A stretch of DNA of 52,879 bases from an uncultured Gammaproteobacteria bacterium (GCA_964405655.1 CAYOOO010000008.1:1-52879), one strand, 5' to 3'; positions 2,204-29,478 are shown, counted from the first letter of the stretch. The notes: a model not told the origin generated them from the sequence alone. Numbers and translations: made by a program.

Positions 2204-2596
2204 TTACTTAAACCGGTCAAAAAAACTTAAAAATTTACTTACGTAGTAAGGAGGCTTTGCTTCACTTTTCTTACCATTAACCAATGAATAACAAATAAGT
2301 TGACCGCATCTGTGTGATTCAACTAACCCTAGATTTTTAAGATCAGAAAGTGCATGAGAAACTGCAGATTGAGACATATTTAAGATTTGAGTTATATCTG
2401 TGACTGGAATTTCTTTTACTTTGTGCAGTAATAGATATATTCTAAGCTTTGTCGGATCTGATAAATTTTTAACTATCCGGAGTAACTTTTCTTCATCGCT
2501 TAAGAAACTAACTTTTTTTTGCAATGAAGCTACTTTAGAATCTGTAATATAGTGAGGATGTCCTTCATGCCCTTTAATATATGAACGATTGAACAT
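2204..2596 (-). CDS. ArsR/SmtB family transcriptional regulator
   Basis: LSDPTKLRIYLLL...SQSAVSHALSDLKNLGLV winged-helix pattern. Confidence 0.9.
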   Translation of the reverse strand: MFNRSYIKGHEGHPHYITDSKVASLQKKVSFLSDEEKLLRIVKNLSDPTKLRIYLLLHKVKEIPVTDITQILNMSQSAVSHALSDLKNLGLVESHRCGQLICYSLVNGKKSEAKPPYYVSKFLSFFDRFK

Positions 2597-25840: not shown

Positions 25841-26125
25841 TTATGTTTTTGATGTACTCTTTTCAGTCATCTTTCCGTGAGATCTAAAAGTTCTGGTTGG
25901 AGCAAACTCTCCAAGTCTGTGTCCTACCATAGCCTCAACCACATAAACTGTTATAAAGTTCTTGCCTTGATGAACTAAAAAAGTGTGACCAACAAACTCC
26001 GGTGGAATTTGGCAGTTCCTAGCCCAAGTTTTAATCGGTGATTTCTGTCCAGACTCCTTCTGGACTTGCACTTTTTTCATTAATTTCTGATCTATATATG
26101 GTCCTTTGTATGATGATCTACTCAT
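25841..26125 (-). CDS. rpsS: 30S ribosomal protein S19
   Basis: IKTWAR, VHQGK and [13 protein letters not shown]. Confidence 0.98.
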
Positions 26126-26137
26126 AATTTATATTTA

Positions 26138-26253
26138 TTAATGATCTAAAAGATCTTCATAGAGGGCTTGTCCCTCATACAAGCTTCTTCCCATTATTTA
26201 GTAATCCTTTCTGAAGCGAGTACAGGCTTCGCCTGATATGTACTTCTTGACAT
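26138..26253 (-). other. Two coupled mini-ORFs, each starting with an S19-like N-terminus
   Basis: MSRSTYQAKPVLASERITK* (26253-26194) joined by TAATG to MGRSLYEGQALYEDLLDH* (26194-26138). rpsS starts MSRSSYKG. Confidence 0.6.
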
Positions 26254-26277
26254 AATTGTTTTTCTATTAACTATTGG

Positions 26278-27093
26278 TTATCTTCTCCTTTTTAAAATAT
26301 ATTTACTTGTCCATTTATTTTTCTTCCTGGTATTACCAACGGCTTTCTTACCATATTTAGTCATTGGACTTTTTCGACCTACGCCGGACCTTGCTTCTCC
26401 TCCTCCATGAGGGTGAGACCTGGGATCTTGGGCTGTACCCCTCACTGTTGGCCTAATACCCATTCTTCTCTTTCTACCTGCTTTACCAAAGACAATATTT
26501 TTAAAGTCCGCATTTCCTAACACTCCAACTGTAGCCATAGACTCAAGTGATACTTTTCTAATCTCGCCTGATGGCATTTTAAGATGAGCAAAACCACCCT
26601 CTTTTGCCTGAATAATAATTGAGGTCCCAGCACTTCTACCTAATTGTCCTCCTAAGGAAGGAGTTAGCTCGACGTTGTGAACTACTGTTCCAACTGGGAA
26701 GTTTTTTAACTGACTAGCATTACCAGTCTTGATCTCAACTCTTTGAGCAGATATTACTGTATCCCCAACTGTCAAGCCTTCAGGACAAAGAATATATCTT
26801 TTCTCACCATCTGGGTAAGTTATCAAAGCAATATTGACATTGCGGTTTGGATCATATTCAATTGCCTCAACCTGACCCTCAACATCCCTCTTGTCCCTTT
26901 TGAAATCAATTATCCGATAATATCTTTTATGCCTTCCACCTTGATGTCTGACTGTGACTTTACCACCAGAGCGACCGGATTTTTTAGGTAAAATTATCAG
27001 AAGTCCTTTTGGGCTCAAGCTAGTCTTTCTAGGTTTATTGATCTTGGTAGCAAATCTTCTGGTTGGTGTCTTCTCTTTATAATTTATGAGCAT
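26278..27093 (-). CDS. rplB: 50S ribosomal protein L2
   Basis: RHQGGRHKRYYRIIDF, EYDPNR, GRSAG and HPHGGGE. Confidence 0.98.
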   Translation of the reverse strand: MLINYKEKTPTRRFATKINKPRKTSLSPKGLLIILPKKSGRSGGKVTVRHQGGRHKRYYRIIDFKRDKRDVEGQVEAIEYDPNRNVNIALITYPDGEKRYILCPEGLTVGDTVISAQRVEIKTGNASQLKNFPVGTVVHNVELTPSLGGQLGRSAGTSIIIQAKEGGFAHLKMPSGEIRKVSLESMATVGVLGNADFKNIVFGKAGRKRRMGIRPTVRGTAQDPRSHPHGGGEARSGVGRKSPMTKYGKKAVGNTRKKNKWTSKYILKRRR

Positions 27094-28336: not shown

Positions 28337-29117
28337 CTTCTTTTTCTCCTTTCTCAGTAGACTCAGTATTATCGGTAGGTTCAGTACTGTCGGTACTTTC
28401 TGTCTTTTCTGGCTCTACTGAACTTACTGATTCACTGGCCTCTTCTTCCTCATCAGGTTTTTCTTCTGGTGGTGGGGTATAACCGCGAGTCTTGCCTTGT
28501 TTTTCTATGATCACCATCTGACCGACTGGTCCTGGCAGCGCACCTTTGACAGTCAAGAGATTTTTTGCCTGATCAACAGCAATTACTTCCAAACCCCTAA
28601 CACTGACTGTTCTTACTCCCATATGTCCAGCCATTTTTTTACCTTTGAAAACCCGGCCAGGGGTTGTCCCAGAACCGATTGAACCTGGAGCACGGTGCCT
28701 ATCAGATTGACCATGGGTCTTTGGTCCGCCATGAAAACCATATCTTTTGACCCCTCCGGCAAAACCTCTGCCCTTAGAAACGCCAGTTACTTTGACACTG
28801 TCACCAATAAAAAAAACTTGGCCTATGCTTATCTGTTGGCCAAGTTCTAATCCTTCCCTGTCGCCCTTAACTTCTTTAAACCATTTAATCCTTTGGTCTA
28901 GTCCTATCTTTTTAAGATGGCCGGCTTGGGGCTTTTTTATTGACTTTTTGTTGCCCATCCCAATCTGGACTGCATTATAGCCATCTTTATTTTCCAAAGA
29001 TCTAATTTGGGTGACAAAATTAGGTTGTATCTCAACCACAGTTGCTCCCACCCTTCTACCACGAGCATCATAAGTACTAGTCATCTGTTGCTTAACTCCA
29101 AGTAGCGTGTTAATCAT
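28326..29117 (-). CDS. rplC: 50S ribosomal protein L3 with an acidic repeat tail
   Basis: DGYNAVQIG, SKGRGFAG and HRAPGSIG; likely start MINTLLG at 29117. Confidence 0.97.
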   Translation of the reverse strand: MINTLLGVKQQMTSTYDARGRRVGATVVEIQPNFVTQIRSLENKDGYNAVQIGMGNKKSIKKPQAGHLKKIGLDQRIKWFKEVKGDREGLELGQQISIGQVFFIGDSVKVTGVSKGRGFAGGVKRYGFHGGPKTHGQSDRHRAPGSIGSGTTPGRVFKGKKMAGHMGVRTVSVRGLEVIAVDQAKNLLTVKGALPGPVGQMVIIEKQGKTRGYTPPPEEKPDEEEEASESVSSVEPEKTESTDSTEPTDNTESTEKGEKEDAN

Positions 29118-29127
29118 TTTTTTGACA

Positions 29128-29222
29128 AGAAAAAGAGTGATCACGCCAGCTGGCGGATCACTCAGTAATTGTGCCTTACTTCAATTGTCGTATCAGGCAA
29201 AGCCTGACGCACAATTTACTGA
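29128..29222 (-). promoter_or_regulatory. Structured rplC leader: long hairpin followed by a terminator-like hairpin
   Basis: TCAGTAAATTGTGC...GCACAATTACTGA, then GAGTGATC-CGCCAGCTGGCG-T-GATCACTC-TTTTTCTT, ending about 10 nt before the ATG. Confidence 0.6.
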
Positions 29223-29277
29223 TAGAAATTCAAGTTGTAAAAAATTAACCTGATTTAAACATCAGTTTCTTAGGGGA

Positions 29278-29307
29278 ATTTTAACACAGGCTCAGCCACA
29301 TTTGCAA
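29278..29307 (-). promoter_or_regulatory. Internal promoter between rpsJ and rplC
   Basis: TTGCAA-18 bp-TAAAAT with an extended TGn motif. Confidence 0.55.
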
Positions 29308-29324
29308 GCTGCTGCAAAGCTGCA

Positions 29325-29447
29325 GTCCTGAACGAAGTGATGGAATTAATAAAATTTTCTAACCCAACTTTCAGAGATTTATCAGGAGATCTGGCACTCG
29401 CCAGAGATCCTTCACTATGCTCAGGATGATCCGCCATTGGCGGATCA
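29325..29447. repeat. REP-like inverted pair with flanking GC hairpins
   Basis: TCCTGAACGAAGTGA (29326-29340, plus) and TCATCCTGAGCATAGTGAAGGATCTC (29429-29404, minus). Hairpins GATCTGGC-ACTC-GCCAGAGATC and TGATCCGCC-ATT-GGCGGATCA. Confidence 0.65.
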
Positions 29448-29478
29448 CACGGCTACCATCAAAACGTTTCGAGACAAA

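Follow-up and report, generated by a model that had tools for sequence, protein, structure and literature searches.

Why is the beginning of ribosomal protein uS19 written three times in front of a single rpsS gene? This question is raised by the junction between rplB and rpsS in a 52,879-nt stretch of DNA (the window), which carries an S10–spc ribosomal-protein operon on its minus strand and belongs to a groundwater Daviesbacterium of the Patescibacteria (candidate phyla radiation, CPR). Two short open reading frames (mini-ORFs) lie in this junction; each begins like S19 and then runs into a hairpin. In the initial annotation, they were regarded as coupled upstream reading frames with conserved peptides. 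The interpretation favored here, at a probability of about 0.6, is that the mini-ORFs are former rpsS start regions, displaced upstream by two hairpin-forming duplications or insertions at codon 6. They would thus represent an evolutionary scar which possibly still relays ribosomes, rather than conserved regulatory peptides. The spacer appears to be best described as two stacked start-displacement units at an operon junction that is hypervariable.

Three copies of the S19 start

The spacer between the rplB stop codon (TAA, 26280..26278) and the rpsS ATG at 26125 is 152 nt long. Mini-ORF 1 (ORF1, minus strand, 26253..26194) encodes MSRSTYQAKPVLASERITK in 19 codons followed by TAA, and mini-ORF 2 (ORF2, minus strand, 26194..26138) encodes MGRSLYEGQALYEDLLDH in 18 codons followed by TAA TAA; the two overlap by TAATG. 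ORF2 is in frame with rpsS, and its stop lies 12 nt from the rpsS ATG. The sequence TAA TAA ATA TAA ATT immediately precedes this ATG, with another in-frame TAA 6 nt ahead of it. Both ATG-initiated ORFs, their overlap, the annotated hairpins and all coordinates were confirmed on the minus strand. Faulty assembly does not account for the spacer, which is identical and variant-free in contigs from at least six independent sequencing runs of one groundwater study, at up to 34x coverage.

The S19-like beginnings of the mini-ORFs are referred to here as echoes. Echo 1 (minus strand, 26237..26253) reads ATG TCA AGA AGT ACA TA (MSRSTY), echo 2 (minus strand, 26178..26194) reads ATG GGA AGA AGC TTG TA, and the current rpsS start reads ATG AGT AGA TCA TCA TA. 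The codon pattern ATG-(S/G/A)-R-S-x-Y occurs three times in the window, both strands counted together, always at the rplB–rpsS locus, whereas 500 composition-preserving shuffles gave a mean of 0.07 occurrences and never reached three. In addition, a profile of 16 residues derived from 77 distinct S19 N-termini was scored on 1.05 million non-S19 windows from about 140 related loci. Only ORF2 reached a score of at least 4, and ORF1 was within the top 35. The echoes are far beyond chance, and the annotated triplication of the S19 N-terminus stands.

The residues M1, R3, S4 and Y6 are kept in all three starts despite different serine codons, which had been taken as a hint of peptide-level conservation as opposed to DNA duplication. 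According to this proposal, the mini-ORFs would encode selected leader peptides (M-S/G-R-S-x-Y...) that regulate S19 as coupled upstream ORFs (uORFs). However, a look at relatives explains the codon differences: many of their genuine rpsS genes begin with ATG TCA AGA AGT/AGC TCA TAT, which is the DNA of the echoes, and echo 1 is identical at 16/18 nt to the starts of relatives such as locus L010 (related loci are cited by L numbers). The argument from switched serine codons fails because the echoes match typical rpsS 5' DNA, and the deviant start is that of the window's own rpsS. ORF1 as a whole is a chimera of S19 codons 1-6, a hairpin core and an end resembling the rplB tail (E-R-I-T-K-stop). 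This tail, GAA AGG ATT ACT AAA TAA TG, may be compared with AAA AGG AGA AAG AAA TAA TG in relatives with compact junctions, about 20 of which show the TAATG overlap between the rplB stop and the rpsS start.

A sister strain with one unit only

The most direct indication of what the mini-ORFs once were comes from a sister strain, represented by one 181-nt contig (depth 2) from groundwater run X5 of a different study. This contig joins 26108 to 26178, skipping 69 nt with a 2-nt microhomology (TA), and differs from the window at 4/88 nt in unit 1 and at 5/311 nt in rplB. The joint reads ...ATGGGAAGAAGCTTGTA/CAAAGGACCATATATAGATCAG, and the protein encoded by the flank begins with MGRSLY. On the coding strand, the order is rplB end, TAA, TTAATAGTTAATAG..., ORF1, and ATG GGA AGA AGC TTG TA/C AAA GGA CCA TAT ATA GAT CAG AAA TTA AT. 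In other words, the ATG of ORF2 is the genuine rpsS start in this strain, and the first 17 nt of ORF2 are identical to that start.

The 69-nt block present in the window and absent from the sister strain (minus strand, 26109..26177, delimited by the contig joint) contains the unit-2 hairpin, an arm complementary to the start, an AT-rich leader and the start now used by rpsS. Located within Tyr codon 6 of rpsS, with the TA microhomology at both ends, it is fixed in four runs of the source study. As the sister strain has the first unit only and uses the ORF2 ATG for rpsS, the mini-ORFs can be read as fossil or alternative rpsS starts fused to filler, with peptides that are apparently not under selection. 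The leader-peptide proposal is further weakened by ORF1, in which both visible sister-strain substitutions are nonsynonymous: GCG to ACG (Ala to Thr) and CTC to CCC (Leu to Pro). The first of them also breaks one stem pair of the hairpin.

The sister strain bears on another explanation, namely programmed translational bypassing, in which ribosomes that have initiated at an upstream ATG would leave the message at the Tyr codon preceding the hairpin and resume on a downstream Tyr codon. A TAT codon does stand directly before each hairpin, with a matching TAT or TAC in the next unit. Yet rpsS has its own complete start and N-terminus, several stops and a start interrupt the gaps of 59-69 nt, a conserved nascent-peptide signal is lacking, and the sister strain works without unit 2. 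Bypassing is consequently regarded as extremely improbable.

Anatomy and conservation of the hairpins

Five units were aligned: units 1 and 2 of the window (Win1 and Win2), those of loci L016 and L017, and unit 1 of the sister strain. Each consists of three parts. The first is the displaced start, comprising ATG, the five following codons and TA. The second is the core. Its 5' half carries on the rpsS reading, with TAT-GAG-G.. corresponding to TAT-AAA-GGA, and its 3' half resembles an antisense copy of nucleotides ~8-25 of the next start. The third is a tail resembling the last rplB codons with the stop/start junction. Win1 matches the start of ORF2 (the sister-strain start) in antisense at 10/12 positions and Win2 the present rpsS start at 10/11, the corresponding values for L016 and L017 being 9/11 and 8/10.

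That each echo runs into a hairpin, as annotated, was borne out, and the hairpin is conserved with compensatory changes. Its general form has two tiers: an outer stem between echo codons 3-4 (GAAGY or GTAGC) and GCTTC or GCTAC, and an inner stem pairing SAGGS with SCCTS. Predicted fold energies of the units range from -11.6 to -18.4 kcal/mol (z -3.3 relative to shuffles in L016). In unit 1, the two-tier hairpin (minus strand, 26213..26246; -11.6 kcal/mol; covariance model match of 58 bits) is formed by the outer stem GAAGT (26242-26246) with GCTTC (26213-26217) and the inner stem CAGGC-GAA-GCCTG (26223-26235), and its 3' half is antisense-like to nucleotides 8-19 of the next start. Unit 2 contains the inner hairpin GAGGG-ACAAG-CCCTC (minus strand, 26162..26176), the alternative pairing GCTTGT-N7-ACAAGC being also in the sequence. 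Its core matches that of L016 and L017 in 18/21 columns with 2 gaps and has its own compensated stem. The anti-start arm follows, TATGAAGATCT (minus strand, 26151..26161), complementary at 10/11 positions to rpsS nucleotides 7-17 (26109-26119; shuffle p ~0.03).

Across four homologous units and 10 pairs, 39/40 cells are paired (97.5%), in comparison with 25-45% when the partners are slid by 1-3 columns. Compensatory double changes occur in 2/10 pairs (A-U to U-A and C-G to G-C), the four sequences being too few for statistical proof. The 26-nt core TAT-SAGGC-RAA-GCCTS-TAY-TCGCT is 85-92% identical among three carrier lineages, while third codon positions of rpsS are only 48% identical between the window and L016.

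These features invite an explanation in which the hairpin is the selected part of a cis-acting RNA switch. In such a switch, the antisense arm would pair either with the upstream echo or with nucleotides +7 to +20 of the real start, and S19 translation would be set by ribosomes moving along the mini-ORF or by the binding of a protein, for example S19. The compensatory changes and a core conserved above rpsS third positions argue for it, as do the anti-start arms, which match the current downstream start in both window units. Both the echo:anti and the anti:start pairings are predicted in all five units, giving an alternative topology that encloses the AUG. Nevertheless, structures at the real start are weak and no better than shuffles (z -0.1 to -1.0 for anti:start); the pairing of the anti-start arm that encloses the rpsS AUG is predicted at -9.5 kcal/mol with z -0.8. 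The element is absent from most close relatives and from the sisters of each carrier, one stem-breaking change is present in the sister strain, and the complementarity follows automatically from a direct-plus-inverted duplication. No Rfam family matched the window at the gathering score (at E <= 1, only a spurious long non-coding RNA with E 0.29 in 25950..26450). The fold of the whole spacer was not more stable than shuffles (z -1.1). An RNA switch is considered unlikely.

Carriers and the variable junction

The distribution of the element was traced in 67 genome and 80 metagenome loci around S19 homologues, supplemented by look-ups of close relatives. The annotated proximity of rplB and rpsS is indeed the rule: about 100 of 140 loci have junctions of at most 30 nt, often with a TAATG overlap, and the Shine–Dalgarno (SD)-like AAGGAG then lies inside the last rplB codons. 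About 20 loci of Daviesbacteria type carry 57-175 nt of mutually unrelated filler composed of palindromes and stop-rich short repeats. In about 20 loci, a whole extra ORF of 87-179 amino acids stands between rplB and rpsS; no Pfam family covers these ORFs, and they share no detectable similarity. Fillers differ even among relatives of L017 whose L22 is 94% identical, which indicates that the junction is a hypervariable slot in Daviesbacteria.

The window-type element was found in three lineages only, namely the window with its sister strain, L016 and L017. These carriers do not form a clade, and near relatives of every one of them have compact or unrelated junctions. For instance, L014 and L018, sister species of L016 (88% identity over S19, L22 and S3), have junctions of 3-5 nt. 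A search for echoes in all other expanded spacers, based on the S19 profile and on DNA identity to the own rpsS start, gave L017 as the only clear case; the N-terminus of the L008 extra ORF was weak, and L077 was doubtful.

The arrangement in L017 is [extra ORF]-TAG/ATG AGT CGT AGC TCA AGT TAT GAG GCA AAG CCT CTA CTC GCT ACT TTT TAT CGG AAA GAA ATT AAA TAA/ATG-rpsS, in which an intact mini-ORF, MSRSSSYEAKPLLATFYRKEIK, has a good SD sequence of its own (AAGGAG, 8 nt upstream) and abuts its neighbors at TAG/ATG and TAA/ATG. This mini-ORF favors selected leader peptides, and the motif Y-(E/Q)-A-K-P-(L/V)-(L/F)-A is common to Win1, L016 and L017. These shared residues coincide, however, with the base-paired hairpin, which explains them equally well, and the mini-ORF tails differ among Win1, Win2 and L017. 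The first 14 nt of the L017 echo are identical to the start of L017's own rpsS, including a rare CGT codon.

In L016, there is a single 64-nt unit, ...TAG AAG GAA CGA AGT GGT TAT GAG GCA AAG CCT CTA TTC GCT TCT..., in which AAG occupies the place of ATG and the frame changes by 1 nt close to the end of the unit; a differently framed ORF reaches its stop 3 nt before the rpsS ATG. Nevertheless, the unit is invariant in six independent samples. A comparison of spacers in sister genomes, suggested in the initial annotation as a check on conserved frames and starts, has thus turned partly against the peptides, as L016 retains a homologous unit without the ATG and the frame. Together with the rpsS DNA of relatives, the sister-strain start, the two substitutions in ORF1, the 14-nt identity in L017 and the sporadic carriers, this speaks against conservation at the peptide level. 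Selected leader peptides are largely refuted and retain a very low probability.

The junction offers several further observations. The extra ORFs (L008, L010, L022/L092/L093, L024, L029, L078, L081, L086, L096, L101 and L117/L121; partial in L017:1-204, L076, L107 and L124) usually begin at the expected start of rpsS and end with an SD sequence for rpsS, forming an orphan-gene slot inside the S10 operon. The idea that the window spacer is a remnant of one such ORF was dropped for lack of evidence. Many expanded spacers start right after the rplB stop with short, degenerate, multi-frame stop-rich repeats (TTAATAG, TAGCG.TAG, TTAATCRG...), as in L019, L053, L103, L156, L158 and L023/L104. In L023/L104, the last ~28 L2 codons at the rplB 3' end form a separate tblastn piece, a possible frameshift or assembly error. 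Locus L156 (CAZCAT010000020.1) has an intact rpsS at 2214..2501, between rplB and rplV, where the gene table contains no called gene.

Origin of the units

How could such units arise? In the proposed course of events, the rpsS 5' end would be duplicated at the TA of Tyr codon 6 in each unit. An antisense-like copy of nucleotides ~8-25 of the start region would fold back on the old start as a two-tier hairpin, and a copied junction of rplB tail, stop and rpsS start would supply the next start. The older unit would have given rise to ORF1, and the unit nearest rpsS to ORF2. Local direct-plus-inverted duplication via template switching is a plausible source, and later on, units may have been gained or lost as the repeated start modules recombined or exchanged alleles. 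Slippage producing a simple tandem duplication was rejected: Tandem Repeats Finder reported nothing at a score of at least 30, and the units, 59 and 69 nt long, have cores only ~60-65% alike. A generic repeat finder returned only chance repeats of 8-9 nt at the locus.

Alternatively, the units could be a site-specific mobile mini-element, similar to MITEs (miniature inverted-repeat transposable elements) or repetitive extragenic palindromic (REP) sequences and mobilized in trans, which inserts at the TA of rpsS codon 6 with its own replacement start and spreads horizontally among Daviesbacteria. An identical site in three non-sister lineages, the similarity of the cores, the TA microhomology at the indel borders and a unit-2 start unlike the displaced one, as if it came from outside, are in line with this idea. 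Neisseria REP2 (PMC3184786) exemplifies known repeat families equipped with a ribosome binding site (RBS) and an ATG. A possibly related two-tier palindrome with the inner stem TATCAGGC-AAA-GCCTGA, shared with unit 1, is located at 29181..29219 (no strand assigned; blastn 15/16), but this match is marginal (covariance model R1, 17.3 bits, E ~0.07). As to the look of a target-site duplication with inverted repeats, the palindromic hairpin is present, the indel borders share TA only, and the long flanking direct repeats are the host rpsS starts.

Mobility is countered, first of all, by the searches for further copies. None was found at 80% likeness or more in four whole metagenome contig sets, in which the genome is present at 4-34x, although the 26-nt core alone may fall below the minimum length of the aligner, and none in 0.57 Mb of related loci. 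With a covariance model of the two-tier hairpin, the 152 related loci yielded no additional member, and the window only the single marginal match mentioned above. Moreover, no transposase or integrase is linked to the units, and the flanking repeats of L017 are host-specific, which implies that the target was duplicated and not that a carried sequence was brought in. A mobile element is therefore doubtful. The lack of other copies speaks for a local origin rather than a dispersed repeat, and the direct-inverted-direct architecture built from local sequence suggests a complex local duplication, with a MITE or REP family fitting less well. CRISPR-like ectopic spacer integration and introns of the bulge-helix-bulge (BHB) type, were considered and discarded, as the inserts are mutually homologous and built from local sequence, and splicing is unneeded.

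Several points weigh against displacement of the start by local duplication. The unit-2 start differs from the displaced start at 8/17 nt, with strains only ~2-5% apart; together with the limited likeness of the two cores, this means that unit 2 is not a recent copy of unit 1. The 69-nt difference may reflect either precise deletion of an old unit in the sister strain or import of an allele into the window lineage. The contrast between a core identity of 85-92% and third positions at 48%, in carriers that are not a clade, appears to fit strong constraint or horizontal spread better than a neutral scar. All carriers share the same insertion site, and a similar, if marginal, hairpin exists at 29181..29219. 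Finally, the sister-strain joint depends on the single contig described above.

A possible ribosome relay to rpsS

If the mini-ORFs are displaced starts, they may still relay ribosomes to rpsS by termination-reinitiation. Ribosomes arriving from rplB, or initiating at the native-like echoes, would open the hairpins while translating the mini-ORFs and then reinitiate at the following ATG, with S19 itself made from the third start (26125). Such a relay would preserve some coupling between L2 and S19 and could explain how an essential gene pair, normally tightly coupled, tolerates the insertions. Copying of the ancestral TAATG junction has left each mini-ORF stop either on the next ATG or at most 12 nt away from it. 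If the echo region is blocked in the structure prediction, mimicking an occupying ribosome, the antisense arm of all five units would pair with +7..+20 of the next start in one common topology that encloses the AUG. The proximity of stop and start known from translational coupling is found at the TAATG of ORF1 and ORF2, between ORF2 and rpsS, and at the L017 abutments. The annotated coupling of the mini-ORFs can be retained to this extent: their stops overlap or closely precede the next ATG, which makes coupling physically plausible.

A relay may, however, be dispensable. An SD sequence (GGAG/GAGG/AGGA at -22..-5) precedes only 16/59 ORF starts in the window, and AT-rich leaders without SD are the norm in this genome; rpsS may thus initiate on its AT-rich leader without any relay. 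The stable hairpin beginning at echo position +8 should hinder initiation on the mini-ORFs, the structures predicted around the real start do not exceed shuffles in stability, and L016 lacks the echo ATG, though its ORF in another frame ends close to rpsS. No RNA runs containing the window sequence, and no RNA or ribosome data covering the organism, were found; the organism occurs only in DNA metagenome runs.

A further proposal combines origin and function. In this start-regenerating insertion, a small element or a recurrent template-switch product would enter the first codons of an essential gene, re-create the start downstream and fold back on the old start, so that the antisense arm, able to pair with the old start or the new one, and the relic mini-ORF would form a selected gate on S19 that depends on ribosome traffic. 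This proposal, which is speculative and rather improbable, would account, if true, for both the high core identity across distant lineages and the compensatory stem changes. Should the hairpin and mini-ORF arrangement indeed gate S19 translation, it would represent a new and evolutionarily young form of translational control in CPR bacteria.

Displacement of the start, as favored here, would have implications of its own. It would mean that an essential and tightly coupled ribosomal gene pair can absorb insertions in its first codons when the start is duplicated and the old start is kept as a mini-ORF ending at the next one. It also calls for caution in genome reading, since peptide-like echoes with switched synonymous codons can be fossils of earlier starts and not selected peptides. 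The rplB–rpsS junction of Daviesbacteria, with its hairpins, stop-rich repeats and orphan ORFs of 87-179 amino acids, is a hypervariable slot lying within the cell's most conserved operon.

Neighboring genes and spacers

The gene upstream of the spacer, rplB (minus strand, 26278..27093), encodes uL2 of 271 amino acids, as judged from the ORF list and from homologues with Pfam Ribosomal_L2_N/C, including named Daviesbacteria L2 proteins. Candidatus Daviesbacteria provide its best named relatives; the closest non-self L2 is 79% identical and has a 112-nt rplB–rpsS spacer unrelated to that of the window. Exact-protein look-ups with the L2 and S19 of the window returned the same strain only. The final rplB codons, AAA AGG AGA AGA TAA, include the SD-like AAGGAG, which in compact relatives serves rpsS. 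The rpsS gene of the window (minus strand, 25841..26125; uS19, 94 amino acids) has its own complete start and N-terminus, with no SD sequence within 25 nt upstream. Between the rplB stop and ORF1 lies an AT-rich, stop-codon-rich stretch, CCAATAGTTAATAGAAAAACAATT (minus strand, 26254..26277), which shares homology with a section of the heptamer-repeat spacer of L019 and is also kept in the sister strain. Scans found no promoter-like or terminator-like sites.

The remaining junctions inspected in this gene cluster measure a few tens of nucleotides at most, with the exception of the rpsJ–rplC spacer (29145..29478), which is expanded to ~330 nt and rich in palindromes. Palindromes of this region include the two-tier hairpin at 29181..29219, GATCCGCCAATGGCGGATCATCCTGAGCATAGTGAAGGATCTC near 29400-29450 and GTGATCCGCCAGCTGGCGTGATCAC at 29136-29160. 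The palindromic motif (G)TCATCCTGAGG...GAAGGATCT recurs in the rplB–rpsS spacers of L029, L079 and L086 (with a related form in L009) and at ~29400-29450 in the window, and it seems to represent a family of small dispersed repeats separate from the rpsS units. The mechanical ORF start of rplC is a GTG at 29144, while the conserved L3 N-terminus (MINTLLGVKQQMT...) suggests the ATG at 29117 as the real start (29117..29144).

Comparison with known systems

A literature search found no description of a displaced start with a hairpin of this kind, and the arrangement can be compared with several known systems. Leader-peptide attenuators and uORFs, such as trpL, ermCL, tnaC and secM, also place a short ORF and hairpins ahead of a regulated gene, but the rpsS units show neither a conserved peptide or codon signal nor conservation across relatives, and a terminator and an Rfam match are lacking as well. 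The bypassing elements of T4 gene 60 and the mitochondrial byp elements share the matching Tyr codons; unlike them, rpsS has its own ATG, and the gaps hold stops.

Other parallels concern the origin of the units. Integrative elements that duplicate the end of their target gene (e.g., tRNA 3' ends, attL/attR) likewise heal the gene with a second copy and leave the displaced copy as a direct repeat. In contrast, the rpsS units are only 59-69 nt long, without recombinase or cargo, and it is the 5' rather than the 3' end that is duplicated. Template-switch direct-inverted duplications (quasipalindrome or fold-back events) offer the same order of direct copy, inverted copy and direct copy of adjacent sequence, with microhomology at the junction. 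The difference is that the mechanism at rpsS is deduced from anatomy only, and that the arms have since diverged, with compensatory changes.

Small palindromic repeats in or beside genes include REP sequences and bacterial interspersed mosaic elements (BIMEs), MITEs and the Rickettsia palindromic elements; Neisseria REP2 and Borrelia inverted repeats carry an RBS and an ATG (PMC3184786). The resemblance lies in a short GC-rich hairpin in an operon spacer or gene end, a start supplied downstream, a sporadic distribution and tolerance in essential genes. The rpsS units differ in having no dispersed copies, in being made from direct and inverted copies of the target 5' end, and in occurring always at rpsS codon 6.

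Translational coupling through overlapping stop and start codons (UAAUG, AUGA), known from ribosomal-protein and other operons, resembles the junction in the TAATG of ORF1 and ORF2, in the ORF2 stop 12 nt before the rpsS ATG and in a downstream start without SD, as well as in a structure around the next start that would be melted by the upstream ribosome. It differs in that the upstream cistrons at rpsS are not genes but relics, 18-19 codons long, of the start of the downstream gene, that coupling is putative here, and that this genome often initiates without SD anyway. By analogy, the arrangement would work most like such overlapping stop/start coupling, and as an object it seems most like the small palindromic insertions that supply a start.

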